Shown: positions 17,892-40,719, numbered from the stretch's first letter. The stretch: DNA of 64,000 bases from Chloroflexota bacterium (GCA_003551705.1 PUNJ01000020.1:17128-81127); one strand, 5' to 3'. The notes: generated by a model from the sequence alone, not told the origin. Numbers and translations are program-made.

Positions 17892-17907
17892 TCAAGGTAA
17901 GGAGGCA

Positions 17908-20391: not shown

Positions 20392-20573
20392 AAAGACTCC
20401 TTCCGGATTTGCGCGCGCAGCATCTGGGGAACCATGCAGGGATAGGCGGCGTACAGGCTTTTGCAACACCTCACAACTATTTGTTATTATAGTAAACGTT
20501 CACGCACCCTTTCAAATCTGCGTGGCAAACTGTCAGCCTTGAGTCCGGTGATCCAACATAGCTAGGAGGAAGT

Positions 20574-22175: not shown

Positions 22176-22190
22176 AGAAGGAGTAATCGC

Positions 22191-22601: not shown

Positions 22602-22653
22602 CCCTTGGGCAATAAGTAGGTCCAGAGTTTGGTAACTCTCAAGGAGCGTGAAT

Positions 22654-24249
22654 ATGGCAAGCGAAGATAAGGTGTTTTCACTATCTGGGATCCCAATCAA
22701 GGACCTCTACACGCCGGACGATGTGAAGACCATTGACTATGACCGAGACCTTGGCTTGCCGGGACACCCCCCCTATACACGAGGCGTCTACGCCACGATG
22801 TATCGCGGCCAGCTTTGGACGATACGCCGTTTGAGCGGTTTCAATACACCTGAAGAGACTAACAAGCTTTACCGGGAGGAATACGAACTGGGGCAGACCG
22901 GGCTTTCGGTAGCCCCAGACATCTCTACCGTCGTCGGCATGGATGCGGATGATCCAAGAGTTTCCGCAGACATCGGACATGCCGGCGTACCCATGAGTTC
23001 CATTGAGGACGTCGAAGCCACCTTCAACGGCATCCCCATTGAGAATGTGTCCACCTATCTGGCAGACAGGTGTGGGGCAGTTACCACGGCCATGTATTTC
23101 GTCATGGCGGAGCGGCGCGGCCTTGATCTCAAGGGGCTCCGTGGTACAACCGCCAATGACATGTTGAGCTTCAGCGTGCCCAGCCTCGTGAACCAGACGC
23201 CTCCGCAAGCATATCTCCGCTATGCCGTCGATTTCATCGAATGGTGTTGCGAGCACGCTCCTAGATGGAACCCCGTATCCTTTGACTCATACAACTCCAG
23301 GGATTGCGGGCTCGACGCTGTACAAGAGCTTGGCATGTTGCTGGCCACTGCCATTCAGTACATGGAGGAAGCGAAGAGGCGAGGCAGGGTACCCCTGGAC
23401 AAGTTCGTCCGGCGAGTCTCCTTCGATACCGGTTTGCACAACGACTTTTTTGAGGAAATCGCCAAACTCCGGGCCGCCCGACGTATGTGGTACAAGATCG
23501 TCCGTGACCGCTATGGCATAACGGACCCCAAATGCGCTCTGTTTCGCGTTCACTGCCAGAGTTCGGGCTCGACTCATACAACTCAGGAACCGTTGAATAA
23601 CCTCATTCGCATAGCCTATCAGGTAATGGCAGGAGCACTGGGTGGTGCCCAGTCCATCCATGCCAATGGCTATGACGAAGGCATCTGTCTGCCAACCGAG
23701 CAATCGATGCTGCTCTCGATTCGCACAGAGCAAATAGCGGCCCTGGAAGCAAACATTGGAAACACCATCGACCCTCTTGGGGGCTCCTACTACGTAGAAT
23801 CCCTGACCAACGAACTTGAGGAACGCTCCTGGCAATATGTCAAGAAGATAGAAGACATGGGAGGGATGGCCGAGGCCATGAGTTCCGGTTGGCTATACAA
23901 GGAGTACAGGGATGCCATGATCGAGCACGAGAGGAAGGTGGCCACGGGTGAACTTCCCATAGTCGGCGTGAATAGGTTCCGGCTGGAAAAAGAGCCCTAT
24001 GAGGTCCCCATCTTTAGATGGGACCCGGAAGCTCCGTACAAACAGATTGAGAAACTCAAGGCATTCAAGCAGAAACGAGATAAGGACAAGTTGACGGCAT
24101 CCCTGGAGAACCTTGAAGCTGTTACCCGCCGGGGCGAAAACGTGTATCCGGCCGTAATGGACGCGATCAGGTGCAATGCCACTCTTGGCGAGATATCGGA
24201 TGTGCAATTGAAAGTTTACGGCCTCTGGCGCCGGCCGCTGGCAATCTAA
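22654..24249 (+). CDS. B12-dependent acyl-CoA mutase large subunit; copy 2 (paralogue of 20574..22175)
   Basis: Same architecture and motifs as copy 1 (YTRGVYATMY...). Start set at the ATG 7 nt after an AAGGAG SD. Confidence 0.85.
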   Translation: MASEDKVFSLSGIPIKDLYTPDDVKTIDYDRDLGLPGHPPYTRGVYATMYRGQLWTIRRLSGFNTPEETNKLYREEYELGQTGLSVAPDISTVVGMDADDPRVSADIGHAGVPMSSIEDVEATFNGIPIENVSTYLADRCGAVTTAMYFVMAERRGLDLKGLRGTTANDMLSFSVPSLVNQTPPQAYLRYAVDFIEWCCEHAPRWNPVSFDSYNSRDCGLDAVQELGMLLATAIQYMEEAKRRGRVPLDKFVRRVSFDTGLHNDFFEEIAKLRAARRMWYKIVRDRYGITDPKCALFRVHCQSSGSTHTTQEPLNNLIRIAYQVMAGALGGAQSIHANGYDEGICLPTEQSMLLSIRTEQIAALEANIGNTIDPLGGSYYVESLTNELEERSWQYVKKIEDMGGMAEAMSSGWLYKEYRDAMIEHERKVATGELPIVGVNRFRLEKEPYEVPIFRWDPEAPYKQIEKLKAFKQKRDKDKLTASLENLEAVTRRGENVYPAVMDAIRCNATLGEISDVQLKVYGLWRRPLAI

Positions 24250-24264
24250 AAAGGGGTGAAATTC

Positions 24265-24672
24265 ATGGTCAAAGACAGGGTGAAGATATTGATGGCAAAG
24301 CCCGGCCTCGAGGGACACTGGAGGGGCATGACCATAGTCAGTAGCGCCCTGCGGGATGCTGGATATGAGGTAATCTACGGGGGAAACATGCTGCCGCCGG
24401 AGATCGGCCAGACCGCAGCCCAGGAGGACGTGGACATGGTAGGGCTGAGCATCCTCTCGTCAAATTACATGAGACTGGTAAGTGAAACTCTGGAGGAACT
24501 CCGCAAGAACAACAAGGACGACGTAACAGTATTGCTGGGCGGCATCATCTGGGAATCGGACTTCGCGGCTCTCAAACATATGGGGATTGCCGGAATATTC
24601 ACACCGGGTACGCCCTTGCAGGACATCGTCGCCTTTGTCAATACAAAGACCGCAGCGCAGCCCAGCCGGTGA
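24265..24672 (+). CDS. B12-binding small subunit; copy 2
   Basis: KILMAKPGLEGHWRG identical to the copy-1 loop. Start at the ATG preceded by AAAAAGGGG. Confidence 0.85.
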   Translation: MVKDRVKILMAKPGLEGHWRGMTIVSSALRDAGYEVIYGGNMLPPEIGQTAAQEDVDMVGLSILSSNYMRLVSETLEELRKNNKDDVTVLLGGIIWESDFAALKHMGIAGIFTPGTPLQDIVAFVNTKTAAQPSR

Positions 24673-24764: not shown

Positions 24765-25083
24765 GTAGTTGCCTTGGATGGCCTAGGGTCAGTGAGGAAA
24801 ACGCTTAGTGCCGATTACGCCTAAAGAACAAAGCCGCATTGTGGGCGTCGCCCACAGCAATAGATGGCGATCTGAGATCGCAGACCGAACCAACCGGGCA
24901 GATTCCCTAGACCAGCACCATACGGTTTGCCCATTATCCACATCATCTCTTACTCCGTTGTCGCGATTGATGCCTGGCATCAATTCAACGGTGCATTTAG
25001 CAATGCGATTACACCTTTCTTGATGAGGGCCTTTCCATAGGTCCAAGATTGATCCCGACAGCCAAGTGAAGGAGGGAATTACG

Positions 25084-25548
25084 ATGAGTATCAAGGATCC
25101 AGCAGGGTTAGCCCAATATCTTCGAAGCGGCAAGCGAGTGCTGATCATGACCGGAGCGCTCTGTGATGAAATCAATTTCGATGGCAAGAGCCTGTTGGAC
25201 TATGCTGCCGACATTGCCAAGAGGACCAAAGCTCCAGTAGCTGCCACAGGCAATACGGTCAACGGCCTCCGAGAGCGAGGCGTGGAGACACACAAGTCCT
25301 GGGCGGCTGAGATCGTAAATTTCATGAAATATGATTGGCACAACCCGCTCATGGCTGACAAACCCGAGGTGCTGCTTTTGATAGGATATAGCCCGACTAT
25401 GGCAGCGAACTTAGCCTCTTCCGTAAAGGATGCGGAAACCGTCGCCTTGGGCGGCAGCTACATCGAGGAAGCCACGTATTCTCTTCCCAGTGTCAAGTCT
25501 TTCTCTGAGTGGCAGCAAGAGTTAACGGAGTTAGTCAAGGCACTATAG
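25084..25548 (+). CDS. CdhB-like protein (epsilon subunit of archaeal-type CO dehydrogenase/acetyl-CoA synthase)
   Basis: 154 aa. Rossmann-like pattern KRVLIMTG...APVAATGN...EVLLLIGY and a C-terminal ELVKAL, resembling ACDS epsilon subunits. Start at ATG after GAAGGAGGG. Confidence 0.5.
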   Translation: MSIKDPAGLAQYLRSGKRVLIMTGALCDEINFDGKSLLDYAADIAKRTKAPVAATGNTVNGLRERGVETHKSWAAEIVNFMKYDWHNPLMADKPEVLLLIGYSPTMAANLASSVKDAETVALGGSYIEEATYSLPSVKSFSEWQQELTELVKAL

Positions 25549-25554
25549 CAGGAA

Positions 25555-26124
25555 ATGGATAACAAGTCCGAGACGCAGAAGAGCAGGATCAGCGAAGGTG
25601 AATTCCGCCATTACGTTTTCGAGCGGCAGGAATTGCTGGATGAAACGCGACGCTTTCTGGAACAGGCGGGATATGAATGGAAGCCTGTAGACCATGTGGG
25701 ATTTGTCCAGCCCGATTTCCGAACCAAGCGTAAGGCAGAAGGGCGCCGTTTCGAAATAGCAGGCCTGCTCCGGGAGAGCATGGATGAAGCCGTTGAGGCA
25801 CTCATCAAGCTATCTGCGATACGAGCTGTAAATGCAAACATCGATTGCGTGCTGGTTCTGCCGCCCATAAATGAGTATGTGCTCATCGAATTCCTCATGG
25901 ATGAACGAGGGCGCTGGTACTTCGGGATGAAAGATGCCAAGATATCGATGTGGTTTGTCAATCCGGATAACAGGACCACAATGTGTGTCATTGGCGGTCC
26001 AAGCGATAGAGAATTCTTAAAACACTTCTTCATGAGCCAGGCCAATTTCGATGAGTACATGTCCATGCGCGCACTACACCTCATCCAAGAAAGACTTATG
26101 GCTGAGGAAGAAGAGGACGACTAG
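25555..26124 (+). CDS. hypothetical protein (no recognisable motif; acidic C-terminus)
   Basis: 189-aa ORF in operon context between the cdhB-like and SDR genes. Confidence 0.5.
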   Translation: MDNKSETQKSRISEGEFRHYVFERQELLDETRRFLEQAGYEWKPVDHVGFVQPDFRTKRKAEGRRFEIAGLLRESMDEAVEALIKLSAIRAVNANIDCVLVLPPINEYVLIEFLMDERGRWYFGMKDAKISMWFVNPDNRTTMCVIGGPSDREFLKHFFMSQANFDEYMSMRALHLIQERLMAEEEEDD

Positions 26125-26177
26125 TTTGAGGGGGGACCCAATTAATCTTACCCTCACAAATAACAAGGAGGTAAGTG

Positions 26178-27077
26178 ATGGGCAAACTTGATGCTAAGAA
26201 CGCAGTAGTTACCGGTGGCGGCCGGGGCATTGGCCGAGCAGTAGCCTTGGAATTGGCCAAGAATGGCGCCAAAGTAATAGTTTCCGACTTGGGCGGATCG
26301 AGGAGCGGCGAAGGTGCGGATGCTTCTGCAGCGGAGGAAGTCGTTGCCGAGATCAAACAGGCCGGGGGCACGGCAATGGCCAACCATGAGTCTGTTACCG
26401 ATTTCGTGGCGGCTGAAAGAATAGTCAAGACCTGCGTAGATAGTTTCGGCAGCATAGATATACTGGTCAACTGCGCCGGCATTCTGCGCGACCGCATGTC
26501 CTGGAACATGTCCGAAGAGGAATGGGATGCTGTTATCGCCGTACACCTCAAAGGTATGTTCAACATGATCCGGCATGCTGGCCGATTTATGAGGGAACAG
26601 AAGTGGGGGCGCATCGTCAGCACCACCTCTGATGCCTGGAGAGGCAGTCCAGGACAGCCGAACTACAGTGCCGCCAAGGGGGGCATAGTCAGCCTCACTC
26701 GCACACTGGCCGGTGAACTCGGCAAATACAATGTCACAGCAAACGCCATCGCACCGTTTGCAGCCACCAGGATGACCATGGACGAGGAGGTTATCGCCAG
26801 GTTCAAGAAGTACTATGAATCGGGCATGATGACAGAGGACCAGTATGATGAACTGGTCAATATGCCCGGTCCGGAGTACCTGGCTCCCGTGGTTGCGTAC
26901 CTTTGCACCGAAGAAGCCGCCGCCATCAACGGCAAGGTTGTCGGATGCGGTGGCGGACGGGTCTCTCTGTATTCTGACCCGGTCGAAATTCGCGGTCTTT
27001 TCAGGGACCATAGACAATTCGGTGCCTGGACAGTTGAAGAACTGATCAAGCTCGTGCCGAAGACTCTTCTTACATAG
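26178..27077 (+). CDS. MFE-2-type (R)-specific 3-hydroxyacyl-CoA dehydrogenase (SDR family)
   Basis: Near-collinear with the dehydrogenase domain of peroxisomal multifunctional enzyme 2: VTGGGRGIGR, SDLGG, VNCAGILRDR, GRIVSTTS, catalytic NYSAAK. AAGGAGG SD. Confidence 0.8.
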   Translation: MGKLDAKNAVVTGGGRGIGRAVALELAKNGAKVIVSDLGGSRSGEGADASAAEEVVAEIKQAGGTAMANHESVTDFVAAERIVKTCVDSFGSIDILVNCAGILRDRMSWNMSEEEWDAVIAVHLKGMFNMIRHAGRFMREQKWGRIVSTTSDAWRGSPGQPNYSAAKGGIVSLTRTLAGELGKYNVTANAIAPFAATRMTMDEEVIARFKKYYESGMMTEDQYDELVNMPGPEYLAPVVAYLCTEEAAAINGKVVGCGGGRVSLYSDPVEIRGLFRDHRQFGAWTVEELIKLVPKTLLT

Positions 27078-27276: not shown

Positions 27277-28641
27277 GTGAGCGTCGGAGAAGATCCAGAA
27301 AAGAATGTTCCGCCCGGAAGAGAATTTCAATTGCCCACAGACCCCGATTATCTCTGGGACGGGTTAAAGGACATAGGACTGGGCATAAGATGGGTAGCCG
27401 AAGTTAAGAAGGCCGACATGCAAATCGAGCTTTCCGGACCCAAGTGGGAGTACAAGAGCTACACCATCATGGAAGTGATTGAAGAGCCTGGCATAGTAAG
27501 GGACGGCATAGTAACACTGGTTGGTCCCGATCTGCACGAGGTGGAACCCGGTACTTCGGTGCCCTCTGCCTGGGACATCAAGGTCTACGGCCCTGGCATC
27601 GGCCAGCGGCATCGCGAGTATCTGGAACGGCAAATGGCCATGGCTCTGCACGGAATTGAGGGATACATGGCCTTTGGTTCTTTCCAGGCACCCTGGATGA
27701 GGATCAGCAAGGCTGTGGCGGGGCGGCTTACGTTCGCCAAGCTGTGCCAGATAATCCATGCTTATATCAAGACCGTGGTCCCTCAAGTGGAAGCCATGGA
27801 GTTCCGCTGGATAATCGGCGCCCCCGAAATCGGCGGCCTCGACCTGATAGAGCCGTTATATCGCAGGGGTATTCAAAGGTTGAAGGCCCAGGAACAGTCG
27901 GTTGCCCTTGAAGACGAAGACGTCGACCTGTTCTACGGGTGTACAATCTGCAAATCACTGGCCCCCAACCACGTATGTGCCATTACCCCCAGCCAGATAC
28001 CCTACTGCGGCATTCTGTCCTACAACGGCGCCCAGGTTACGGTCGAGCTGGACCCCGAGGGCTACATATTCCCGATGCCAAAGGGCGAGTGCAAGAACTT
28101 CCTTCAGGGCAGCTACTCCGGCGTTGATGCAGCAGTGTATGAAAGATCAAACCATCAGGTAAAGAGGGTTAATATCTTCAGCGCTATCAGGTACCCCACC
28201 ACCAACTGCGGATGCTTTGAGGGCGCTGCATTCTATATACCTGAAGTAGACGGTCTCGGCGTTGCCATCCGTCGCTATATCGGTGTGACACCTCTCGGCA
28301 TAAAGTTCTCCCGTTTGGCAGGTACCATATCAGGCGGCTCGCAGAACCATGGCTACAAAGGCGTGTCGATGCGCTCAATGCAAAGCAAGACTTTCCTCAA
28401 GGGAGACGGGGGCTGGAACAGAATCGTCTGGATGCCCGCTGACCTGAAAGAAGAAGTAGCCGAATACATTCCCGAAGAGATCTACGACAAAATAGCCACC
28501 GAGCAGGACACCATCGACCCGGTCGAACTCAAGGAGTTCCTGAAGAAGAAAGGTCACCCCGTAGTTGAGAAATTCTGGAAAAATGGTGAACCTCAATCGT
28601 TGAATGTACCTCTCCCAGGAGGGGAGTGGGCCGACGAATAA
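27277..28641 (+). CDS. cdhC: acetyl-CoA synthase (A-cluster) subunit, archaeal CdhC type; copy 1
   Basis: A-cluster ligand pattern C-x2-C-x8-C-x9-C followed exactly 67 residues later by the Ni-binding C-G-C (TNCGCFEG). About 455 aa, as in archaeal beta subunits lacking the bacterial AcsB N-domain. GTG start 5 nt after AAAGGAGG. Confidence 0.8.
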   Translation: MSVGEDPEKNVPPGREFQLPTDPDYLWDGLKDIGLGIRWVAEVKKADMQIELSGPKWEYKSYTIMEVIEEPGIVRDGIVTLVGPDLHEVEPGTSVPSAWDIKVYGPGIGQRHREYLERQMAMALHGIEGYMAFGSFQAPWMRISKAVAGRLTFAKLCQIIHAYIKTVVPQVEAMEFRWIIGAPEIGGLDLIEPLYRRGIQRLKAQEQSVALEDEDVDLFYGCTICKSLAPNHVCAITPSQIPYCGILSYNGAQVTVELDPEGYIFPMPKGECKNFLQGSYSGVDAAVYERSNHQVKRVNIFSAIRYPTTNCGCFEGAAFYIPEVDGLGVAIRRYIGVTPLGIKFSRLAGTISGGSQNHGYKGVSMRSMQSKTFLKGDGGWNRIVWMPADLKEEVAEYIPEEIYDKIATEQDTIDPVELKEFLKKKGHPVVEKFWKNGEPQSLNVPLPGGEWADE

Positions 28642-28656
28642 ATTGGGAGGTCGAAA

Positions 28657-28872
28657 ATGGGAGATAACCTTTGCGGAGTATGTCAGAAGAAGGAAACAGA
28701 AGCTACATGCAAAGTCTGCGGCGTGGCACTGTGCGCTGAATGTGTCCGTGAAGTCAGCGTAGAAAATCCAGGCCAACGGGTGCTTGGTGTGCTGACCAGT
28801 CCTCTCAAGTCAGGCACGAAGAAACAGAAGGTCTGTGCGACCTGTATGAAGGAAGTCGATTTCGTCGATTAG
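28657..28872 (+). CDS. 4xCxxC zinc-ribbon miniprotein; copy 1
   Basis: 71 aa with CxxC pairs at residues 6/9, 18/21, 26/29, 60/63. GGGAGG SD. Conserved paralogue at 32907..33128 in the same relative position. Confidence 0.65.
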   Translation: MGDNLCGVCQKKETEATCKVCGVALCAECVREVSVENPGQRVLGVLTSPLKSGTKKQKVCATCMKEVDFVD

Positions 28873-28955
28873 GTGCTTCCGCTTGCTGCTGAAAGACTTC
28901 CGTTCGTATGCGTTAACGCTTGGGCTAAGTATCGATAAGTCGGAGGATAAGAGCT

Positions 28956-31445
28956 GTGAAAGATAATAACAGAATTGCTCACGTCGGGTCCCTGGAAGTC
29001 AACATAGGCGACGTAGTTCGCGACCCCAGGGGGCACGAAGACGAAATCGTTGAAATACTGGAGAACGATTTTGTTGAAGGTCGACATAGCAACTTCGGTG
29101 GATGGATTACCCTCCTGCCGGATGCCATTGATCTGGCGGAACTCGATTATTCATACCTTAACAAATACCCGCCTCTCTATTCAGAGAGCGAGAGCACTTG
29201 CCGGGACTGCAGTCTGGGAGATTGCGATCTTAGCCAGCGTGCGGGAAAATGCGGACTCAGCGCCGAATCCTTCCAGGGGAGACTGAGCCTGCGAAAGGCC
29301 TGCCGCGGTTGCATGACTCAAATTACTGCAACCCGTCAGTTGCTTAATTACGCCCTCAAACGCTGGCCGGAGGATACCCCAGTCTCCATGGGCGAGATCC
29401 TTAGCATATCCGATAGTGCCCCAGCTATCACCGTTCTCTCCGGCATCTTGATCAAGACCATAAAGGACCTCAACAGGGCCCAGTCCTATGCGGAGCAGCA
29501 GCTAGCCAGGCTGTTCCAGGCCAGTTTCAACGGGACCGGCACGGCGGTTGAATTCGAGAGCATGGTCTTGCACACCGGCTCGGTACTATTGCTGACCATG
29601 GGCGTAGCAGAGATGCTGAAGATCTCCTGCTACGGATTCATCAGTGCAGCAAACGAGGAGTTGGAAGTCATCGACCAGTTCCCAGCCCCCAGCGTGAAAG
29701 GCGGATGGGCTTCCGTCGACAACAGCAAACCGTCGATTGCATTCGAAGGAGATGACTTTCTTCCCGCCTGGTGCGCACTGGACTACATGAAACAGCAAGA
29801 CCTGCTCGGTCAGATAGAGATCTGCGGCCTGGGCTCAGCCGGCGATGACATCGCCAGGTTCCATGACCAGTGCCGCGTTCTGGGTCCAGCCGTGAGAGCC
29901 ACCAAGGCCATCCGAAACGGTGTATTCAACGTAGTCGTCCTCAGCCCGGGCTGTACTCCGCAAGATCTGCTCGGTGAGGTCGAGCGAGCCGGCAGCAAGG
30001 CCATATGGGTTGGCAGCAACGGCATCGGCAATTTGCGCGACAGAACGGACGAGACCGTCGATAGCATAGTTGCCGCGCTGGCTGCCGGAGAGAAGGCCGT
30101 CTGGGTCCGCGATGTGGAAAAGGCAGGCGAGGTGGCTGTCAAGGCTGCACAGACCATCGCCAAATCCAAGTCCAGCCTGACGTCCGAAGATGACGCTGTC
30201 AAGGCTGCCGCAAGCCACGACAAGAACTGTGACCTCTGTACCCTGGTCTGTCCTCTTAATCTTCCTGTTGCCAAGGCCGTAAAGGGACTGGAAACAGGCG
30301 ATTGGACAGCGATGCTTGAAGTGGAGAAAGCGTGCAACTTCTGCGGCAAGTGTGAAGATGCGTGCCCCAGCAAGTTGGAATTACGTGACATCATTGTCGC
30401 CGCCGAAAGAAGACAGGCTGACAAAGACAAATTCGTTATGCGACCGGGTCGCGGTCCAATTTCGATCACCGAATTGCTGCAGTCAGCGTTTGCCGTGGGT
30501 TGGGGCAGCATTCCAGCCATGGTTACCCTATTCGGGTGCGGTGACGCTCCGCAGGAAGAGATAGCCTGGATGGCTGATGAATTGTTGAAAGGTGGATGCA
30601 TGGTCTTCACTGCAGGGTGTGGCGCCTCCGATATAGCGCACTCCTACAGCGAAATGAAGAAGAAATACGTATTCGAGGAATACGCAGCCACCTGCGCAGC
30701 CAGAAACCTGGTGAACTGCGGCAGTTGCTCGGCCATGTGTCATGCACTGCCCATGTACCTGATGTTGAGGCCCTCCGGAGGGATTCCGCTGTACGGCGGA
30801 ATTCCACCCCTGGGTGATTCCATCAATCTTGGCGGCGCCCAGTCATTAATAATATGGGGCTCCATGTCCGACCGCATGTACGCCATGGCAGCGGCCTGGG
30901 CACGACTCGGTTCCACCGTTATCGTGGGTCCCTCATCATCGCTCAAGTGGCCTCGCTCCCTGGTGGGCAACAGGTATGATCGCAGCCGCTGGTGGGTACA
31001 TCACGGTGAGACGGCAAAGAAGCGCGAAACTGAGCCCGTCCCCGAACACCTCATCATGCCGGTTGAGACAAAAGAGGAAGCGCTGACCATGCTGGCGCGG
31101 TCGGTCCTGACCGTGAAGGACTATCGTGAAAGCCGCGCCACGCACCTGGAAGTCTTGATTGATTACTATGACCGCTTCTATAATGAGTTGCCGGCTGACT
31201 GGCCGTTGCTGGTAAGGTCTGACTTCGAACTGCCACCCCGCTACAGAAGATACATGGTCAGATTGCTGGGCGAGGAATATGGTTGGGAAACCGAAGGAAT
31301 GCGGATCAAGCAGGCCAAGCACCGGGACGGCAAGCTCATGACACTGTCAGAGTTTGCGGCCAATTACGGCATGGAGCAAGGCATCTACAGTACCCGGCTG
31401 AAGAGCCAGTTGCCCCTACGCCTCAGAGACAAGGTAGAGGAATAG
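28956..31445 (+). CDS. cdhA: CO dehydrogenase catalytic subunit-like protein, archaeal CdhA type with ferredoxin-like insertion; copy 1
   Basis: 829 aa. N-terminal CxxCxxxxC...C Fe-S motif. Inserted 2x[4Fe-4S] ferredoxin segment (NCDLCTLVCP / CNFCGKCEDACP) as in archaeal alpha subunits. C-terminal Cys cluster (GCG..., NCGSC). Sits in a cdhC/cooC context. Confidence 0.6.
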   Translation: MKDNNRIAHVGSLEVNIGDVVRDPRGHEDEIVEILENDFVEGRHSNFGGWITLLPDAIDLAELDYSYLNKYPPLYSESESTCRDCSLGDCDLSQRAGKCGLSAESFQGRLSLRKACRGCMTQITATRQLLNYALKRWPEDTPVSMGEILSISDSAPAITVLSGILIKTIKDLNRAQSYAEQQLARLFQASFNGTGTAVEFESMVLHTGSVLLLTMGVAEMLKISCYGFISAANEELEVIDQFPAPSVKGGWASVDNSKPSIAFEGDDFLPAWCALDYMKQQDLLGQIEICGLGSAGDDIARFHDQCRVLGPAVRATKAIRNGVFNVVVLSPGCTPQDLLGEVERAGSKAIWVGSNGIGNLRDRTDETVDSIVAALAAGEKAVWVRDVEKAGEVAVKAAQTIAKSKSSLTSEDDAVKAAASHDKNCDLCTLVCPLNLPVAKAVKGLETGDWTAMLEVEKACNFCGKCEDACPSKLELRDIIVAAERRQADKDKFVMRPGRGPISITELLQSAFAVGWGSIPAMVTLFGCGDAPQEEIAWMADELLKGGCMVFTAGCGASDIAHSYSEMKKKYVFEEYAATCAARNLVNCGSCSAMCHALPMYLMLRPSGGIPLYGGIPPLGDSINLGGAQSLIIWGSMSDRMYAMAAAWARLGSTVIVGPSSSLKWPRSLVGNRYDRSRWWVHHGETAKKRETEPVPEHLIMPVETKEEALTMLARSVLTVKDYRESRATHLEVLIDYYDRFYNELPADWPLLVRSDFELPPRYRRYMVRLLGEEYGWETEGMRIKQAKHRDGKLMTLSEFAANYGMEQGIYSTRLKSQLPLRLRDKVEE

Positions 31446-31517
31446 ATTTCGGCCCGATTGTTACGTCGATAAAGTAATCGTTCTGAAACCCGGTTACAAC
31501 GTGGGAAGGGGGAAAGC

Positions 31518-32885
31518 ATGGCTGTACCTGAAGAAGAAGCAGTCTCTAAATTGCCGGCCGGAAGGATCTTTCAGTTACCCACAGATCTGGACCATCTCTG
31601 GGACGGCCTGGACGACATAGGCCTGGGACTGCGATGGCTCAGCGAGGTCAAGAAAGCCGATATGCACCTTGAGTTGGGGGGGCCCAAATGGGACTACAAG
31701 ATGTTCTCCGTCTTCTACATTGAAGAGGATCCTGAGAAGGTCCCGGATGGCCAGGTCAAGCTCATAGGGCCGGATATCCCAGAAGTCAAGCCGGGAACTT
31801 CCTTGCCGGGGGGATTCACCATCAGGATCTACGGCAAAGAACTTACACAAGCCCATCAGGGTTATGTTTCACGCCAGATTGGCACCGCCCTTCAGGGTCT
31901 TGAAGGTTTCATGCTCTTCGGCTCACCTGACAGTCTCTGGATAAGGATAAACAAAGACGTGGCCGACAGGCTCACCTTTGCAAAGATATCGCAATTTTGT
32001 TATGCGACTGCCAAGACCCTGGTACCTCAAGTTGACGCCGTGTCCTTCTTCTGGGTAATAGGAGATCCGGAGGTAGGCGGTGTAGAGATGGTCAACCCCG
32101 TTTTCGAATGGGCTTCCGAGAAGTTTAAAGTCATCAGTGCCAAGGAACTGTACGACGACGAAGATGTAGACATGTTCTACGGCTGCACCATCTGCAAGTC
32201 ACTGGCGCCTAACCACGCATGCGTGCTGACACCCAGCGCCCTGCCTTACTGCGGTATCATCGGCTATGACTCTGCCAAGGTAACAGCCGAAATGGACCCC
32301 GAGGGCTACGTATTCCCCATCCCCAAAGGCGAATGTCTCGACCCAGAAGCTGGTCACTATACCGGCGTGGACGAGGCTATCTGGGAGAAATGCAATCATT
32401 TGGTGAACCGCGTCCACATCTACAGCAGTATCAAGTACCCGACCACGAATTGCGGGTGCTTCGAAGCCGCTTCCTTCTATATTCCTGACGTGGACGGCAT
32501 CGGTCTCGCCATGAGACGTTATACGAAAATGACCCCGCTTGGCATCAAATTCTCAACCCTGGCTGGCACCATTTCCGGGGGTGCCCAGAACCATGGGTTC
32601 AAGGGGCTTTCCATAGCAGGTATGTCCAGCCCGAACTTTCTCAGAGGAGATGGTGGCTGGAACCGGGTTGTCTGGATGCCGTCCGACCTCAAGGAGGAAA
32701 TAGCGGATGTCATACCTGAGGAGCTTTACGACAAGTTAGTCACGGATGAAGAGACTGTGGATGCCGCTGAGCTCAAGCAATTACTTATTGAACGCGGACA
32801 CCCTATAACGGAGGTGTTCTGGAAGAACGGGGAACCGCAACCGTTGCAGATACCTCTTCCAGGCGAGGACTGGCCCGAGGAATAA
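31518..32885 (+). CDS. cdhC: acetyl-CoA synthase (A-cluster) subunit, CdhC type; copy 2
   Basis: Same C-x2-C-x8-C-x9-C ... CGC (TNCGCFEA) arrangement. Paralogue of 27277..28641. GGGGG SD. Confidence 0.8.
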   Translation: MAVPEEEAVSKLPAGRIFQLPTDLDHLWDGLDDIGLGLRWLSEVKKADMHLELGGPKWDYKMFSVFYIEEDPEKVPDGQVKLIGPDIPEVKPGTSLPGGFTIRIYGKELTQAHQGYVSRQIGTALQGLEGFMLFGSPDSLWIRINKDVADRLTFAKISQFCYATAKTLVPQVDAVSFFWVIGDPEVGGVEMVNPVFEWASEKFKVISAKELYDDEDVDMFYGCTICKSLAPNHACVLTPSALPYCGIIGYDSAKVTAEMDPEGYVFPIPKGECLDPEAGHYTGVDEAIWEKCNHLVNRVHIYSSIKYPTTNCGCFEAASFYIPDVDGIGLAMRRYTKMTPLGIKFSTLAGTISGGAQNHGFKGLSIAGMSSPNFLRGDGGWNRVVWMPSDLKEEIADVIPEELYDKLVTDEETVDAAELKQLLIERGHPITEVFWKNGEPQPLQIPLPGEDWPEE

Positions 32886-32906
32886 TTCCTGATCGGGGGT
32901 TGAATC

Positions 32907-33128
32907 ATGTCGGAGAATCTTTGTGGAGTTTGCCAGAAGATGGCCGCTCAATGGACCTGCCAGGAGTGCAAAGTGGCACTATGCGAGCAGTGTGTAAAGG
33001 AAGTGCGCATAGAGTCCACCAGACCAGGTCAGAGGATGATGGGAAGGGTTACGAGCCCCATGAAGTCAGGGGTGAAGAAGATCAAGGTCTGTGACAAGTG
33101 CTTCAGGGAAAAGGAGTTTCTGGGATAG
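32907..33128 (+). CDS. 4xCxxC zinc-ribbon miniprotein; copy 2
   Basis: 73 aa. Cys positions conserved with the 28657..28872 miniprotein. Confidence 0.65.
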   Translation: MSENLCGVCQKMAAQWTCQECKVALCEQCVKEVRIESTRPGQRMMGRVTSPMKSGVKKIKVCDKCFREKEFLG

Positions 33129-33141
33129 CAGCCGAGGAGGC

Positions 33142-35628
33142 ATGATGGATGATAACAAGTATGCTCAAGTCGGCCCTCATCGGGTTGACATTGGTGAGGT
33201 AGTCCGCGACCCACGCGGTATTGAGGATATCGTCAAAGAAATCCTTGAAAAGGACTTCGTTGAGAGTCGCTACGCTCAGTTTGGAGCCCACCTTAATATT
33301 CTGCCTGACGCTGCTGACATTGCCGACTGGGACCATACACTCCTGTCCAGGTATGAACCACTGTATATGCTTTCGGCGCATATTTGCAGGGATTGCACTT
33401 CAGGTCCCTGTAACCTGAATAGTGCCAGCGGGGTGTGCGGACTGGAAGGAGATGTCCTCAAGGCAAAGCTAAGCCTCCGAAAGGCTTGTCGCGGCTGCCT
33501 GGTGCAGATGATCACCAGCCGTGATATTGTCAACTACTCACTGAAGATCTTTGGTCAGGACCACCCCTGCAGCATGGGCGAGTTGCTCACCATGTCCGAT
33601 CACTGCCCGCCCATAGGCACACTCAGCGGTATTCATGTTAAGTCGCTTAACGACTTGGACCGTGTGCTCGCCTATGCCGAATCACAGTTGAGCAAGCTCT
33701 TCCAGGCAAGCTTCACCGGCACGGGAACGGTCAACGATTTCGAGAGCATGGTCATGCACGCCGGCTCCGTCCTGCTGCTGGCCATGGGCGTGGCAGAAAT
33801 GGCCAAGGTCTCTTGTTTCGGGTTTGTTTCAGCCGCCAACCACCAGATAGACCAGCTCGACAACTTTCCGCCCGCCACCTCCGCCGTGGGATGGGCCGCT
33901 ATTGAAAAGGACAAACCCGTGGTGGCCTTCGTCGGCGACAGCTTCCTTCCGGCATGGACCGCAATCCAGCATATGCGGGAAAATGAACAGGTAGAAGCAA
34001 TTGAGGTATGCGGAGTAGGACCGGCAGCGGACGATATAATCAGATTTTATGACAAAGGCAGGGTTATCGGTCCCATGACCCGAGCGGCCCGTGCCATACG
34101 GAACGGTGTCTTTAACGTGGTAGTAGCCGGACCGGGCTGCATACCGCAAGACCTGTTCACAGAATCCGAGCGGGCCAACAGCAAGTTCATCTGGACCGGC
34201 CCCAATGGCGTAAGCAAACTCAAGGACAGAACTGACGACTCCGTCGACAAGATGGTAGCTGACTTGCTAAAGGGAGAGTCGGGAATCTGGATCAGGGATG
34301 TTGAGAAAGCCGGTCAAGTCGCCGTTAGGCTGGCAGGTTCGCTTGGTCCCAACAAGAGTGTATTCGCTCTGGACGACCAAGATGCGGCAAGGCTTGCCTC
34401 GAAGTGCTCTGAGAAGTGCGACCTGTGTTTTTACGCCTGCCCCAACAGCTTGCAGGTCCCCAAAGCTGTAAGAGGGATTGCCGGAGGAGATTGGGCAACC
34501 ATGGCCGGGTTGGAGAAGGGTTGTTATTTCTGTGGCAAGTGCGAGGAAGCCTGTCCTGAAAACGTCCAGGTCCGCGATCTTGTGGTCGCCGCTGAAAGGA
34601 AGAAGGCAGAACAAGACAACTCCGTGATGAGAGCAGGCAGAGGACCCCTCCCCCTGACTGAGATCCTCCAGTCCGCCTTCTCCATGGTCTGGGGCAATGC
34701 ACCCGGCATCGTGGTCCTGGCAGGTTGCGGCGACGCCGATCGCGATGAAATCGGCTGGTTGGCCCACGAATTGACCCGTCGCAACTGCATTGTCTTTCTG
34801 GCCGGATGCGGCGCTGCCGAAATCGCCCGCAATTACCAGGACAAGAAGGGCAAGCATATATTCGAGCTCTACACATCCTCCATTGAGCCGAGATCCCTAA
34901 TTAACTGCGGTGGATGCGCAGCGATTTCCCTGGCCAACAACATGTACATGTACGCCAGGGCTGCTGGAGGAATACCGCTATATGGTGGTATCCCAGAGGT
35001 AGGCGAGGGCTCTTTGTACACCACCTTCTCACTCTTGTTATGGGGTTCTCTGCCGGAGAGAATGCATGCTGTTGCAGCAGGCTACGCCAGACTGGGCGTC
35101 AGGGTGGTGATGGGCCCCAACTCGGGCTGGAACTGGGGCAGATATCTGCCAGGTAACCGCTACGATAGAAGCAAATGGTTCGTGTACCACGGCGATGACG
35201 GCCGCAAGCGAGAGACCGAGCCCATACCTGAGCATCTTATTATCCCTGTCGAGACCAAGGAAGAGGCCCTGACCATGATCCCGAGGACGTTCTTCAGCAC
35301 ATCGGAGATGCGGGAGGGCCGCGCCGCCCGCTTGGACTTCTTCTTCGAACTCTACAGGTTGTTCTATGGCGAGCTGCCCGAGGACTGGCAGCTCTTTATA
35401 CGCTCCCATCTTGATATACCGACCAGGCACAGGATCCGCTTGATCAAGCTGCTTGACGAGGAGTTCGGCTGGGAAGGGGCTGGCATAAAACTCAATAAGG
35501 CCAGGAACAGGGACGGCAAGTTGCTGACGCTTTCGGAATTCAATACCAGCTACGGTATGGAGCTGGGCCGGTACCACTGCCGTTTGGAGAGACTGCTGCC
35601 CAAACACCTGCGCAAGAAGGACGGGTAA
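33142..35628 (+). CDS. cdhA: CO dehydrogenase catalytic subunit-like protein, CdhA type; copy 2
   Basis: Paralogue of 28956..31445 with the same N-terminal Cys motif, ferredoxin-like insertion (KCDLCFYACP / CYFCGKCEEACP) and C-terminal Cys cluster. Start at ATG just after GAGGAGG. Confidence 0.6.
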   Translation: MMDDNKYAQVGPHRVDIGEVVRDPRGIEDIVKEILEKDFVESRYAQFGAHLNILPDAADIADWDHTLLSRYEPLYMLSAHICRDCTSGPCNLNSASGVCGLEGDVLKAKLSLRKACRGCLVQMITSRDIVNYSLKIFGQDHPCSMGELLTMSDHCPPIGTLSGIHVKSLNDLDRVLAYAESQLSKLFQASFTGTGTVNDFESMVMHAGSVLLLAMGVAEMAKVSCFGFVSAANHQIDQLDNFPPATSAVGWAAIEKDKPVVAFVGDSFLPAWTAIQHMRENEQVEAIEVCGVGPAADDIIRFYDKGRVIGPMTRAARAIRNGVFNVVVAGPGCIPQDLFTESERANSKFIWTGPNGVSKLKDRTDDSVDKMVADLLKGESGIWIRDVEKAGQVAVRLAGSLGPNKSVFALDDQDAARLASKCSEKCDLCFYACPNSLQVPKAVRGIAGGDWATMAGLEKGCYFCGKCEEACPENVQVRDLVVAAERKKAEQDNSVMRAGRGPLPLTEILQSAFSMVWGNAPGIVVLAGCGDADRDEIGWLAHELTRRNCIVFLAGCGAAEIARNYQDKKGKHIFELYTSSIEPRSLINCGGCAAISLANNMYMYARAAGGIPLYGGIPEVGEGSLYTTFSLLLWGSLPERMHAVAAGYARLGVRVVMGPNSGWNWGRYLPGNRYDRSKWFVYHGDDGRKRETEPIPEHLIIPVETKEEALTMIPRTFFSTSEMREGRAARLDFFFELYRLFYGELPEDWQLFIRSHLDIPTRHRIRLIKLLDEEFGWEGAGIKLNKARNRDGKLLTLSEFNTSYGMELGRYHCRLERLLPKHLRKKDG

Positions 35629-35631: not shown

Positions 35632-36126
35632 CTAGTCGTCGTCATCTCGAGGTTCAGCCTTGACGAGATCAAGTGCCTCGAAGGGACACCTGTCGGCACA
35701 GACGCCGCAGAGATCCAGACTCTTGTCCGACCGCTTGCAACTTGGGGCATTGATTACGTGCAGGCTGCCGTTGATGACCTGGAGCACCTCAGGTACCGTT
35801 TCCCGCTTGGAGAGCCGGCCTCCTATAGTGACCGTTGTCAACGCCCTGCCGCATGCCAGCACACAGTCCCCACAGCCTGTACACCTTGTCCGGTCTATGA
35901 CATGATCAGTGCCCGGTATCCTCTCGCCCTCTCCCAGAAACCCCTTCAAGGTCTTCAAGGCATCGGCTTGTTCCGGCTCCTGAAGAGGAGGACAATCATT
36001 CAATGTCCGGTCCCGGCTGATGAGATCGAAGGCAAAGGAATAGCAGGTTGGGCAGCCGCATAGCTTGCAATTGGTCCGCGGCAGGAAGCGGTAGATGTGA
36101 AGCGGTTGGACTTCTTTCCTACTCAT
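35632..36126 (-). CDS. poly-Fe-S protein (N-terminal CxxxCxCxxC plus 2x[4Fe-4S] ferredoxin domain)
   Basis: Motifs CTGCGDCVLACG and CGVCADRCP. Start set at the ATG that overlaps the upstream stop (ATGA coupling) with a G-rich SD. Last gene of the minus-strand operon. Confidence 0.55.
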   Translation of the reverse strand: MSRKEVQPLHIYRFLPRTNCKLCGCPTCYSFAFDLISRDRTLNDCPPLQEPEQADALKTLKGFLGEGERIPGTDHVIDRTRCTGCGDCVLACGRALTTVTIGGRLSKRETVPEVLQVINGSLHVINAPSCKRSDKSLDLCGVCADRCPFEALDLVKAEPRDDDD

Positions 36127-36517
36127 GATCCGCCCCAGGCAGGATTTCGTTAAGGGGAGTCGGTGCTTTCGTCGACACTGCTGCAACGACGCCTATTAAG
36201 CTCAGACCGGCCGCAGTCATGTGCTCCACGTCCGCCAACAGGTAACCCGTGTAAAGGCTGGCCGGCATGACACCTGTGCCTGCCTCAATCGTCTTCTCTC
36301 CTCTTGCTTCAACAACGATATGGGAAACCTCGCTTCGCAACGAAATTGCTCCCCCATCGGCTAAGCCCATCTTCTTCATGTCTGCCGGCGATAATCTGAC
36401 AATGGCAGCCAGTTTCTGGTACGCATCACCCCAGCCATGCTTCTGCCTGGCAATATCTAAGTGGATGTCGCTATAAGTGAGTATCGTCAAGGGCAGTCCG
36501 TCCATTTCCGGGGTCAT
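36119..36517 (-). CDS. FwdD/molybdopterin-dinucleotide-binding-domain-like small subunit
   Basis: 132 aa, size and position typical of FwdD-type C-terminal molybdopterin-binding domains split from FwdB. GGAGGG SD. Stop/start overlaps on both sides. Confidence 0.4.
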   Translation of the reverse strand: MTPEMDGLPLTILTYSDIHLDIARQKHGWGDAYQKLAAIVRLSPADMKKMGLADGGAISLRSEVSHIVVEARGEKTIEAGTGVMPASLYTGYLLADVEHMTAAGLSLIGVVAAVSTKAPTPLNEILPGADHE

Positions 36518-37743: not shown

Positions 37744-37749
37744 ATTCGT

Positions 37750-40717: not shown

Positions 40718-40719
40718 AA

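Follow-up and report, generated by a model that had tools for sequence, protein, structure and literature searches.

Two CdhC paralogues encoded in tandem in a Chloroflexota bacterium genome are both selectively maintained and most likely functional, and their ligands, fold and conservation predict that each assembles a Ni-Ni-[4Fe-4S] A-cluster. They probably do not belong to an acetyl-CoA decarbonylase/synthase (ACDS) of the classical kind, their actual role probably being a related reaction. The genomic material comprised 64 kb of this genome (the window) and slices of about 20 kb from related genomes. The duplicated unit contains three genes, for CdhC, an eight-Cys zinc-ribbon protein and a CdhA-like protein, and a single accessory set is common to both cassettes: CdhB-like, u189, FwdB-like, FwdD-like, ferredoxin, ChlI-like, ChlD-like and CooC-like (Table 1).

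Table 1. Genes of the CdhC locus and its surroundings, with positions counted from the first nucleotide of the window.
Feature	Position (nt)	Strand	Remarks
MeaB (minus strand) and two paralogous B12 acyl-CoA mutase pairs	19417..24672		
Mutase large subunits	20574-22175 and 22648-24249		
Mutase B12 subunits	22191-22601 and 24256-24672		
CdhB-like (epsilon-like), single copy	25066..25548	+	TIGR00315 E 7e-9
u189, conserved protein, function unassigned	25555..26124	+	189 aa
Short-chain dehydrogenase/reductase	26175..27077	+	directly 5' of CdhC1
CdhC copy 1, ACS beta-type A-cluster subunit	27277..28641	+	454 aa; CKSL at alcove position
Zinc-ribbon/B-box-like protein between CdhC1 and CdhA-like 1	28657..28872	+	71 aa
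CdhA-like 1, Inoue group A-4	28956..31445	+	829 aa
CdhC copy 2	31518..32885	+	455 aa; CKSL at alcove position
8-Cys zinc-ribbon paralogue of the 71-aa protein	32907..33128	+	73 aa
CdhA-like 2	33139..35628	+	829 aa from ATG 33139
Fe-S protein	35632..36186	-	N-terminal PF04060 and 2x[4Fe-4S] ferredoxin domain
FwdD-like, molybdopterin-dinucleotide-binding beta-barrel domain	36119..36517	-	
FwdB-like	36514..37743	-	TIGR03129, 268 bits vs 328 cut-off
ChlD-like, N-terminal AAA+ and C-terminal VWA; putative maturation/chelatase factor	37750..39975	-	
CooC-like P-loop ATPase; putative Ni-insertion factor	39953..40717	-	CxC motif Cys106-Tyr-Cys108
ChlI/MoxR-like AAA+ ATPase	40720..41751	-	

The CdhC paralogues and their A-cluster ligands

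Both copies match PF19436 (ACS_CODH_B_C; E 5e-66 for copy 1 and 8e-63 for copy 2) and PF03598 (CdhC; E 4e-15 and 2e-17), and score 358.3 and 359.1 bits against the TIGR00316 cdhC cut-off of 355.95. This pass of the NCBI equivalog cut-off, although narrow, is a counterpoint to a non-canonical reading. The AF2 model of CdhC (pLDDT 91.8) contains the A2-A3 fold, and Foldseek returned 9c0t_E as its best match (E 2e-44, TM 0.74/0.84), with bacterial ACS chains next. At its N-terminus CdhC exceeds its M. thermophila counterpart by about 40 residues, a segment that is conserved throughout the clade and modelled at pLDDT 84-95, and the model reaches the C-terminus without a long low-confidence tail. 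The longest ORF of copy 1 begins at 27232, but 27277, the start originally predicted, is the better choice because its GTG is preceded by AAGGAGG and homologues are 454 aa long.

The ligand motifs of copy 1 are GCTICKSLAPNHVCAITPSQIPYCG (Cys237/240/249/259, nt 27940-28008) and TNCGCFEG (Cys326-Gly-Cys328, nt 28207-28215; both in 469-aa ORF numbering), and those of copy 2 are GCTICKSLAPNHACVLTPSALPYCG (Cys223/226/235/245, nt 32184-32252) and TNCGCFEA (Cys312-Gly-Cys314, nt 32451-32459; both in 455-aa ORF numbering). A sequence check found the ligand strings quoted in the original prediction exactly as given in both copies. Each copy reads C-x2-C-x8-C-x9-C and then C-G-C, with the offsets of Moorella Cys506/509/518/528 and Cys595-Gly-Cys597; the predicted spacing of 67 is correct as the offset from the fourth Cys to C-G-C (528 to 595 in Moorella), with 66 residues lying between. 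HMMER alignment to solved ACS chains bears out the predicted correspondence with Moorella ACS, placing the ligand Cys of both copies on the A-cluster ligands: 505/508/517/527 and 594-596 in the C. hydrogenoformans chain and, over the same span with a shift of +1, 506/509/518/528 and 595-597 in Moorella 1oao_C. The match is not due to chance, since the seven motif positions (six Cys and the Gly) are invariant in 120 homologues, one truncated fragment aside.

The A-cluster predicted from these motifs is upheld in ligands, architecture and fold for both copies, but not in the residue that lines the alcove. The position of Moorella Phe512 and M. thermophila Phe195, the single alcove residue supplied by ACS, conserved and adjacent to the proximal Ni (PMC11321310, PMC11474084), is Leu in both copies and in all their orthologues, within a CKSL motif where the canonical sequence is CQSF or CQTF. 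Many members of the same ACS clade retain the canonical Gln-x-Phe yet partner a variant alpha subunit, so the change from Phe to Leu is not a defining trait of the system. P0046 and P0187 are one putative pair of this kind, matched by the lengths of their contigs.

Duplication and selection

Aligned across 450 residues without a single gap, copies 1 and 2 share 58% identity and 79% similarity, and conservation thus runs along the whole of CdhC, beyond the motif blocks. Each copy belongs to an orthologue group of its own, at 78-89% identity in other Dehalococcoidia, and the two groups are sister clades in a neighbour-joining tree. The tandem layout recurs in related loci (L006, L008, L009, L012, L018 and L020).

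The dN/dS between the copies, originally suggested as a check, carries no information, since dS (about 2.6) has reached saturation. Within the orthologue groups of CdhC, median dN/dS is 0.071 (copy-1 type) and 0.090 (copy-2 type); the corresponding medians for CdhA-like proteins are 0.118 and 0.152. Both CdhC copies are under strong purifying selection, and neither is decayed, as had been predicted. That one of them is a decaying duplicate, its ligand motif surviving by recency or chance, would fit the duplication itself and the slightly faster evolution of copy 2 and its CdhA-like partner, but the duplication is old: dS is saturated, identity is 58%, and some ten genomes at species level contain a separate orthologue group for each copy. 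In addition, each lineage has a dN/dS of 0.07-0.09, the two ORFs are intact and align without gaps, and the identities of the two copies to outgroups are symmetrical. We give decay practically no credence; the orthologue groups, the recurrence of the tandem layout and the low within-group dN/dS refute it. The two CdhC groups are separated by 52 fixed differences, some of which adjoin ligands, and these differences, together with the duplicated mutases described below, make subfunctionalisation of the copies plausible.

The CdhA-like partners

Both CdhA-like proteins lack the D-cluster Cys but retain four C-cluster Cys (Cys2-5), one of which we take to be the Ni-binding Cys of CODH, as well as the B-, E- and F-cluster motifs, with His at the first E-cluster Cys of CdhA-like 1. 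The remaining two C-cluster positions are substituted, the His by Asp and the first Cys by Ser (CdhA-like 1) or Pro (CdhA-like 2). The Cys that precedes this first Cys is Gly, the acid-base His is Gln and the acid-base Lys is Arg in both proteins. CdhA-like 1 accordingly reads FEGD in place of the C-cluster His (nt 29742-29765) and GLGS in place of CC (nt 29823-29849), and the variant site of CdhA-like 2 reads FVGD, GVGP, Gln and Arg. The longest ORF of CdhA-like 2 begins at 33091 and overlaps the zinc-ribbon gene. Against TIGR00314 the two proteins score 443 and 478 bits, far under the cut-off of 781.

The substitutions are shared widely. Among 79 homologues, His261 is Asp in 78, His93 is Gln in 76 and Lys563 is Arg in 77, and Cys-Cys is replaced by Gly plus Pro, Ala or Ser; His occupies the C-cluster His position in none of 68 relatives recovered from species-level genomes. 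On the CODH side of the alcove, Arg500 is Leu, Leu504 is Phe and Phe601 is Ser, Ala or Gly. Taken with the Phe to Leu change in ACS, these replacements predict remodelled surroundings for the proximal Ni, although Phe at 504 against a small residue at 601 could be a compensating swap rather than an enlargement.

The accessory module and its neighbourhood

The cassettes and their accessory genes represent an 11-gene bacterial module that joins CdhC to a group A-4 CdhA-like protein and recurs in Dehalococcoidia, Syntrophales and other Thermodesulfobacteriota, Nitrospinae and Spirochaetota. The 160-aa CdhB-like protein matches TIGR00315 over its full length, but weakly (35.8 bits, cut-off 101.2), and its orthologue in locus L003 is a weak match to PF02552. 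The 71-aa zinc-ribbon protein has eight Cys in four CxxC pairs and keeps its position in related loci. The u189 protein, found in nearly every copy of the module, has a restriction-endonuclease-like fold with A. fulgidus AF2093 as the nearest structure, and the short-chain dehydrogenase/reductase keeps its place upstream of CdhC1 among Dehalococcoidia relatives. The PF04060 domain of the Fe-S protein is of the type found in the large subunit of the corrinoid Fe-S protein (CFeSP) and in RnfB. FwdB-like retains its [4Fe-4S] Cys motif, but its W/Mo-ligand Cys-His is Gly-Leu; across 26 related loci, 13 have Cys at the ligand position, 10 have Ser and 2 have Gly.

Upstream lie two mutase paralogues, whose linkage to the module is limited to one Dehalococcoidia subgroup. 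Specificity in such enzymes is marked by Tyr89/Arg207 in methylmalonyl-CoA mutase, Phe/Gln in isobutyryl-CoA mutase and Ile90/Asp117/Gln in 2-hydroxyisobutyryl-CoA mutase. In both paralogues residue 89 is Leu, and Ala occupies position 197 as well as that of Asp117, with Glu/Asp at the Arg207 position in one type and Ser in the other; they fit none of these three mutases, and their specificity residues are non-canonical.

Genes for the methyl carrier CFeSP (cdhD/cdhE, acsC/acsD) were found neither in the 64-kb window nor in related loci L001, L003, L005 and L006, and CFeSP is absent from the recurrent families among 104 neighbouring ORFs in 15 loci, which are radical SAM, HGD-D, AMP-binding, CoA-transferase III and acyl-CoA dehydrogenase. 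None of about 40 bacterial loci has a linked CFeSP gene. The original prediction had implied ordinary CdhC subunits of CODH/ACS, and this part is not supported: no CFeSP gene is linked in the window or the related loci, the partners lack the C-cluster His and Cys and the acid-base residues, and the ACS alcove Phe is Leu.

A proposed variant complex and its alternatives

The case for an ordinary Wood-Ljungdahl CODH/ACS would be that the CdhC/CdhA pairs are isoenzymes like those of the duplicated Methanosarcina cdh operons, that the variant C-cluster is still active on CO/CO2, and that the corrinoid protein and methyltransferase genes lie elsewhere. All A-cluster ligands are kept, the cdhC equivalog cut-off is passed, CdhB-like and CooC-like genes are present, and four of the six C-cluster ligands remain, presumably including the Ni-binding Cys. 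Published surveys class the clade-A CODHs that adjoin cdhC under the Wood-Ljungdahl pathway, and in some archaea cdhC is distant from the other cdh genes (published survey), so that unlinked does not mean absent; other parts of this genome could hold genes for CFeSP, methyltransferase and a canonical CODH. Against this, neither the pendant-Fe ligands (His and first Cys) nor the two acid-base residues are kept, and their replacements are constant across phyla, which argues that the site has become a different one and not that drift has been tolerated. Both alpha subunits fall far under the cdhA cut-off, about 40 loci hold no linked CFeSP but six extra conserved genes, and the neighbours are acyl-CoA enzymes, not C1/folate enzymes. 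We consider an ordinary CODH/ACS unlikely, though it keeps appreciable weight.

On balance, and with modest confidence, we favour a variant, non-classical complex in which the two CdhC proteins are functional A-cluster enzymes and CdhA-like serves as a scaffold. Such a complex would probably carbonylate or decarbonylate a thioester, with no CO oxidation of the classical type. In keeping with its customary chemistry, the A-cluster would make or break C-C(O) and C(O)-S bonds in a CoA thioester at the proximal Ni. Because the pendant-Fe ligands and the acid-base pair of the C-cluster are gone, the CdhA-like alpha subunit would have lost the classical interconversion of CO and CO2; with the epsilon-like, FwdBD-like and ferredoxin proteins it would offer the ACS subunit a multi-[4Fe-4S] scaffold for docking and electron transfer, probably with reductive activation of Ni among its tasks. 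The CooC-like and ChlI/ChlD-like ATPases would mature the metal sites. Given the acyl-CoA enzymes nearby and the lack of a linked corrinoid protein, a corrinoid-bound methyl group is probably not the carbon partner, and the substrate is probably an acyl-CoA that replaces acetyl-CoA or is used alongside it. Two cassettes and two mutase paralogues would serve two related substrates. Roughly half of the related loci retain the W/Mo-ligand Cys in FwdB-like; this hints at a connection to C1 (CO2/formate) chemistry, which a scaffold role does not explain.

Recruitment of the A-cluster subunit away from carbonylating or decarbonylating thioesters, to a task such as reductive C-S/C-X bond cleavage or formation, alkyl transfer or CO/redox sensing, with low-potential electrons supplied by Fe-S-rich partners, strikes us as improbable. 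Fe-S proteins whose catalytic sites have degenerated (CdhA-like, FwdB-like) are indeed numerous in the module, which also has a ferredoxin, it adjoins radical SAM and HGD-D/BcrAD-type low-potential enzymes in other phyla, and residues near the proximal Ni are altered; but the entire A2-A3 fold is conserved, with identity distributed along the protein, CoA-thioester enzymes dominate the neighbourhood, and no ACS homologue is known to have such a function.

Comparison with known systems

The best match to CdhC is that of the archaeal ACDS (CdhABCDE; M. thermophila/barkeri, PDB: 9c0s, 3cf4; E 7e-81, and TM 0.84 between the AF2 model and M. thermophila CdhC). The two systems share a two-domain CdhC with identical A-cluster ligands, the overall fold of the alpha subunit with its E/F ferredoxin insert, a weakly matching epsilon-like subunit and a CooC-type ATPase. 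The window differs in that the D-cluster is missing from the alpha subunit, as are two ligands of the C-cluster and both acid-base residues (His, Lys), in that the alcove residues are changed, and in that cdhD/cdhE are not linked. Its CdhC is extended by a structured segment at the N-terminus and does not end in a disordered tail, and its module adds conserved genes for zinc-ribbon, u189, FwdB/D-like, ferredoxin and ChlI/D-like proteins. FwdB-like and FwdD-like align over their full length with FwdBD of formylmethanofuran dehydrogenase (PDB: 5t5i, 8rja) and keep the [4Fe-4S] motif, but have Gly-Leu for the W/Mo-ligand Cys-His and a family score below cut-off, and FwdA/FwdC are not linked.

An ACS clade with a structured N-terminal extension has been described from Chloroflexota and Thermodesulfobacteriota, where its gene cluster includes a CdhA that branches early (PMC13370988, bioRxiv 2026). 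By its features rather than by placement in a tree, the window CdhC fits this description, having the extension and neither a prismane domain nor a disordered C-terminal tail; that work gives the phylogenetic placement only, without function, active-site analysis or a description of the gene module. The CdhA-like proteins match group A-4 (Inoue et al., 2019; PMC6344411), a bacteria-only group that adjoins the ACS beta gene, lacks the D-cluster, has D,P,C,C,C,C at the C-cluster and Q,R at the acid-base positions, and contains E/F. CdhA-like 2 matches this signature exactly, whereas in CdhA-like 1 the first-Cys position is Ser instead of Pro and the first E-cluster Cys is His; both share the ACS beta neighbour. 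Group A-4 was defined by sequence, with its ability to support the CODH/ACS reaction explicitly left open, and the 11-gene module, missing CFeSP and tandem duplication found here are not described there.

With the CODH/ACS of M. thermoacetica and C. hydrogenoformans (AcsA/AcsB and AcsCDE), the window CdhC shares the A-cluster ligand spacing and the A2-A3 fold. It differs in lacking the A1 (prismane) domain and in having Leu for Phe512, its partner is CdhA-type with a degenerate site and not CooS-type, and AcsCDE are not linked. Hybrid cluster protein and C. hydrogenoformans CODH-V are stand-alone proteins of CooS/HCP type, not CdhA-type, and have no ACS partner; their CODH-fold/prismane scaffold holds a different Fe-S(-O) cluster and does not oxidise CO. 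They provide a precedent for a CODH fold that lacks the Ni C-cluster.

Two ligand-complete CdhC paralogues under purifying selection

Both CdhC copies in the window are intact and ligand-complete. The original prediction held that the two proteins keep the A-cluster ligand spacing, and the exact strings that it quoted are present in both and align with the ligands of solved ACS chains. Each protein contains C-x2-C-x8-C-x9-C followed 66 residues on by C-G-C, and in HMMER alignments these cysteines fall on the A-cluster ligands (Cys506/509/518/528 and Cys595-Gly596-Cys597 in Moorella, via the chain numbering). With the exception of one truncated fragment, the seven ligand-motif positions show no variation among the 120 CdhC homologues retrieved. 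The GTG codon at 27277 is the most likely start of copy 1, as AAGGAGG precedes it and the resulting protein has the 454-aa length of the CdhC homologues. An AlphaFold model of copy 1 (pLDDT 91.8) superposes with M. thermophila CdhC (TM 0.84), and also on the A2-A3 domains of bacterial ACS enzymes. For the canonical-looking homologue P0099, cdhC is solitary at its own locus.

The copies align without gaps (58% identical, 79% similar) and each has its own group of orthologues, with 78–89% identity to copy 1 (P0001–P0019) or 81–86% identity to copy 2 (P0020–P0029); a neighbour-joining tree places the two as sister clades. A pairwise dN/dS between the copies, which had been proposed as a check, was calculated and is meaningless because dS is saturated (2.6, NG86), as it likewise is when the window is compared with the related locus L006. 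We took dN/dS from pairs inside each orthologue group with dS of 0.05–1.5, for which the medians are 0.071 (copy 1, 18 pairs) and 0.090 (copy 2, 27 pairs). Neither copy is a decaying duplicate, as had been predicted, and both are under strong purifying selection. The two groups differ by fixed residues at 52 of the 257 positions that each group conserves, and the differences adjacent to ligands include Val/Ala233, Ile/Leu236 and Gly/Ala316.

The second shell differs from that of known enzymes. Moorella Phe512 (M. thermophila Phe195) is the sole alcove residue contributed by ACS itself (PMC11321310, PMC11474084); it is Leu in copy 1, copy 2 and all of their orthologues, and the preceding Gln is Lys. 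Conserved changes are also found at alcove and contact residues on the CODH side (Arg500 to Leu, Leu504 to Phe and Phe601 to Ser/Ala/Gly, in the numbering of the M. thermophila complex), and together these could represent a compensating swap instead of an enlargement of the pocket. We rejected the Phe-to-Leu change as a hallmark of the variant system as a whole: Gln-x-Phe is kept in other clade members, which likewise appear to be paired with variant alpha subunits.

The duplicated unit is a three-gene cassette

The unit of duplication is not a single gene but three, encoding CdhC, a zinc-ribbon protein and a CdhA-like protein (58%, 56% and 53% identical between copies, respectively), while each of the remaining genes of the system is present once. 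The position of the zinc-ribbon ORF is conserved from Dehalococcoidia to Syntrophales and Ca. Alkanophaga; such small ORFs are easily overlooked. The second one overlaps the longest-ORF start of CdhA-like 2 (33091), so that the true start of the latter is probably the ATG at 33139. Tandem cassettes also occur in the species-level Dehalococcoidia genomes L006, L008, L009, L012, L018 and L020, and in other MAGs the two cassette sets lie on separate contigs of one MAG (L001/L017 and L025).

Features of the window discussed in the text (coordinates in nucleotides)
Feature	Position	Strand	Remarks
HGD-D protein pair	10674-13152	minus	2-hydroxyacyl-CoA dehydratase / benzoyl-CoA reductase type
Family III CoA-transferase	13199-14413		
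DUF35, thiolase and HMG-CoA-synthase-like genes	16264-18933		In series; DUF35 of ChsH2-type OB/zinc-ribbon
MeaB	19417-20469	minus	Directly upstream of module
B12 acyl-CoA mutases	20574-24672		Two paralogous pairs; directly upstream of module
Module, first part	25066-35628	plus	
u189	25555-26124		189 aa; conserved in almost all module copies
CdhC copy 1	from 27277		Most likely start, GTG; ACS beta architecture (PF03598 + PF19436)
Zinc-ribbon/B-box-like ORF	28657-28872		71 aa; four CxxC pairs (8 Cys); between CdhC 1 and CdhA-like 1
CdhA-like 1	28956-31445		829 aa
E-cluster motif of CdhA-like 1	30216-30254		
CdhC copy 2	31518-32885		PF03598 + PF19436
Zinc-ribbon/B-box-like ORF	32907-33128		73 aa; four CxxC pairs (8 Cys); between CdhC 2 and CdhA-like 2
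CdhA-like 2	33139-35628		829 aa; probable start
Module, second part	35632-41751	minus	
FwdB-like	36514-37743	minus	Full-length alignment with formylmethanofuran dehydrogenase B; [4Fe-4S] motif kept
Acetyl-CoA hydrolase/transferase fusion	42902-44833		Butyryl-CoA:acetate CoA-transferase-like, with C-terminal GNAT acetyltransferase domain
Family III CoA-transferase	47545-48750		
Family III CoA-transferase	48766-50016		
HGD-D protein pair	54371-56846	plus	2-hydroxyacyl-CoA dehydratase / benzoyl-CoA reductase type
Family III CoA-transferase	60550-61761		

The CdhA-like partners have a different, conserved active site

The CdhA-like proteins align end to end with solved archaeal CdhA (E of 1e-101 to 1e-114; the reference sequences are those in the PDB alignments, with one error in the 9c0q sequence that touches a non-ligand column only), and score 443 and 478 bits against the NCBI cdhA cut-off of 781. 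Relative to archaeal CdhA, the C-cluster His is Asp in both, the Cys-Cys pair is Gly-Ser or Gly-Pro, and the acid-base pair is changed from His to Gln and from Lys to Arg. Neither protein has the His-rich proton path or the additional pair of N-terminal Cys that a D-cluster requires; both retain the remaining four C-cluster Cys, a four-Cys B-type motif and the E/F ferredoxin insert. The E-cluster motif of CdhA-like 1 (HDKNCDLCTLVCP) has His in place of its first Cys, as in 25 of 79 CdhA-like homologues; CdhA-like 2 has Cys. The substitutes themselves are conserved among the 79 homologues (Asp in 78, Gly in 77, Gln in 76 and Arg in 77), and none of 68 relatives from species-representative genomes has His at the C-cluster position (Asp 43, Asn 23, Ser 1, Phe 1). 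The alpha subunit of the module has a different and conserved active-site make-up.

Relatives with Asn in place of the C-cluster His form a further class, with Gly-Ala for Cys-Cys, the acid-base His mostly replaced by Gln (in a few by Phe, Tyr or Met) and the Lys by Glu, Thr or Leu. This class matches none of the structural groups in table 2 of Inoue et al. (PMC6344411). It comprises loci L038–L053, L058, L061, L064, L066, L067 and L074, some of them from Desulfobacterota MAGs. The archaeal relatives (ANME-1/Methanophagales, Ca. Alkanophaga and some Methanosarcinales MAGs) have an alpha subunit of this type, which in Ca. Alkanophaga is clustered with genes for the zinc-ribbon protein, CdhB-like, CdhC and u189. 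When one locus each from Alkanophaga and ANME-1 were scanned together against Pfam, an acyl-CoA dehydrogenase and a thiolase were also among the hits of the pooled set.

The cassette belongs to a widespread 11-gene module

A scan with the CdhA-like alignment, using one genome per species, found 70 loci. The conserved module encodes a ChlI/MoxR-like AAA+ ATPase, a CooC-like ATPase (with a CxC motif), a ChlD-like AAA+/VWA protein, CdhC, the zinc-ribbon protein, the CdhA-like and CdhB-like proteins, u189, FwdB-like and FwdD-like proteins, and an Fe-S protein with a PF04060 domain and a 2x[4Fe-4S] domain. Gene order places it in Dehalococcoidia, Syntrophales and other Thermodesulfobacteriota, Nitrospinae and Spirochaetota, and in the window it is divided between the two strands. 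NCBIfam models match the CdhB-like and FwdB-like proteins, in both cases below the family cut-off; Pfam at E up to 10 returned nothing useful for the 160-aa, 189-aa and 409-aa proteins. In the window, Rfam gave no match to a riboswitch or any other RNA family, and promoter and terminator signals did not exceed background.

In the FwdB-like protein of the window the W/Mo-ligand Cys-His is Gly-Leu. The Cys is present in 13 of 26 related loci, and because these orthologues, in Syntrophales and others, keep it (some with Cys-His), the cofactor site seems to have been lost within the family. The u189 protein has the invariant motifs FRHYVF and LVLPPxNEY and an acidic EEEE(D) tail. Its confident model (pLDDT 85) shows a restriction-endonuclease-like fold, and the nearest structure is that of the uncharacterised A. 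fulgidus protein AF2093 (PDB 2ph7); a PDB sequence search gave AF2093 only, as a weak match that agrees at the level of fold.

No linked methyl carrier in an acyl-CoA neighbourhood

The module has no linked methyl carrier. Genes for CFeSP (PF03599), the corrinoid Fe-S protein of canonical CODH/ACS, or for a methyltransferase are found neither within the 64-kb window nor in the annotated loci L001, L003, L005 and L006, and neither is among the recurring families of 104 neighbour ORFs at 15 non-Dehalococcoidia loci. In the main alternative reading, the module would be a Wood-Ljungdahl enzyme of the classical kind, with a variant site still able to handle CO and a CFeSP encoded elsewhere. We consider this unlikely, while giving it some weight.

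The families that do recur at those 15 loci are radical SAM, HGD-D, AMP-binding CoA ligases, family III CoA-transferases and acyl-CoA dehydrogenases, and the window is itself rich in acyl-CoA enzymes, including a CoA ligase. HGD-D genes adjoining the module recur in other phyla. The DUF35, thiolase and HMG-CoA-synthase-like genes of this Chloroflexota genome are arranged as in the archaeal thiolase/HMGCS/DUF35 complex.

Directly upstream of the module, the B12 acyl-CoA mutase paralogues are 65% and 64% identical. Their closest solved relative is 2-hydroxyisobutyryl-CoA mutase (HcmA; PDB), yet that identity was rejected since the specificity residues disagree: at the positions that specify substrate in known mutases, Tyr89 is replaced by Leu in both paralogues, and Gln197 and HcmA Asp117 by Ala, while the Arg207 position is Ser in one type and Glu/Asp (Glu in the window) in the other. 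The DxHxxG motif reads ExHxxG in both B12 subunits. Only in this Dehalococcoidia subgroup are mutase genes linked to the module. Where a locus carries the copy-1 cassette alone, the Glu/Asp type is its sole mutase, and three of the two-cassette loci have both types; across related loci the mutase duplication partly parallels that of the CdhC cassette.

Discussion

CODH/ACS is among the best-studied and oldest metalloenzyme systems, and in genome surveys cdhA beside cdhC is routinely taken as evidence of the Wood-Ljungdahl pathway. The module described here is conserved, strongly selected and widespread. Its A-cluster would still perform chemistry of the thioester carbonylation/decarbonylation type, probably on an acyl-CoA that takes the place of acetyl-CoA or is used alongside it, with the two cassettes perhaps specialised for two related substrates. 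The alpha, epsilon-like, FwdBD-like and ferredoxin set may act as an Fe-S scaffold and electron path and not as a CO dehydrogenase; retention of the Cys ligand by the FwdB-like proteins of roughly one in two related loci is suggestive of a C1 (CO2/formate) connection, for which such a scaffold does not account.

A more specific proposal, which we regard as unlikely, is that the module encodes a nickel enzyme of a new kind, a corrinoid-independent acyl-CoA decarbonylase/synthase. The remodelled CdhA-like and FwdB-like proteins would make or handle CO or a carbonyl equivalent, which the A-cluster would join with an alkyl or hydroxyalkyl group larger than methyl; the products or substrates would be branched or functionalised acyl-CoAs, isomerised in this Dehalococcoidia lineage by two dedicated B12 mutases of new specificity. 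If true, this would be a new anaerobic route of C-C bond formation or cleavage, and, given the Asn-type archaeal relatives in Ca. Alkanophaga and ANME-1, it would be a candidate for unassigned steps in anaerobic hydrocarbon or ketone metabolism. Acetone carbonylation modelled on Desulfococcus biacutus was rejected, as that organism uses a TPP enzyme and a canonical CODH/ACS, and is kept as a loose analogy only.

If the module does not carry out classical acetyl-CoA synthesis, Wood-Ljungdahl calls would have to be re-examined in many genomes of Dehalococcoidia and Thermodesulfobacteriota, and there would be a second biological use of the A-cluster. The tandem cassettes, with the matching duplication of an unusual B12 mutase, offer a natural pair of variants for the study of substrate specificity.

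A literature search for the function of Ni-CODH group A-4 or of the N-extended ACS clade found none. A 2026 preprint on archaeal ACDS (PMC13370988), Inoue et al. (PMC6344411) and two recent genomic surveys assign no function to the variant and do not mention the missing CFeSP or the module. Both CdhA-like proteins carry the active-site signature of group A-4, CdhA-like 1 with Ser in place of Pro; the group was defined from sequence alone with its activity left open (Inoue et al., PMC6344411). The preprint describes an ACS clade, found in Chloroflexota, Thermodesulfobacteriota, Myxococcota and Methanobacteria, that has a structured N-terminal extension, lacks the C-terminal disordered tail and is accompanied in the gene cluster by an early-branching CdhA (PMC13370988), and the window proteins match this description in both extension and tail. 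Set against the Wood-Ljungdahl picture, the module departs in three ways: an intact ACS subunit is accompanied by a CODH subunit with another set of invariant residues, and the methyl carrier is unlinked.
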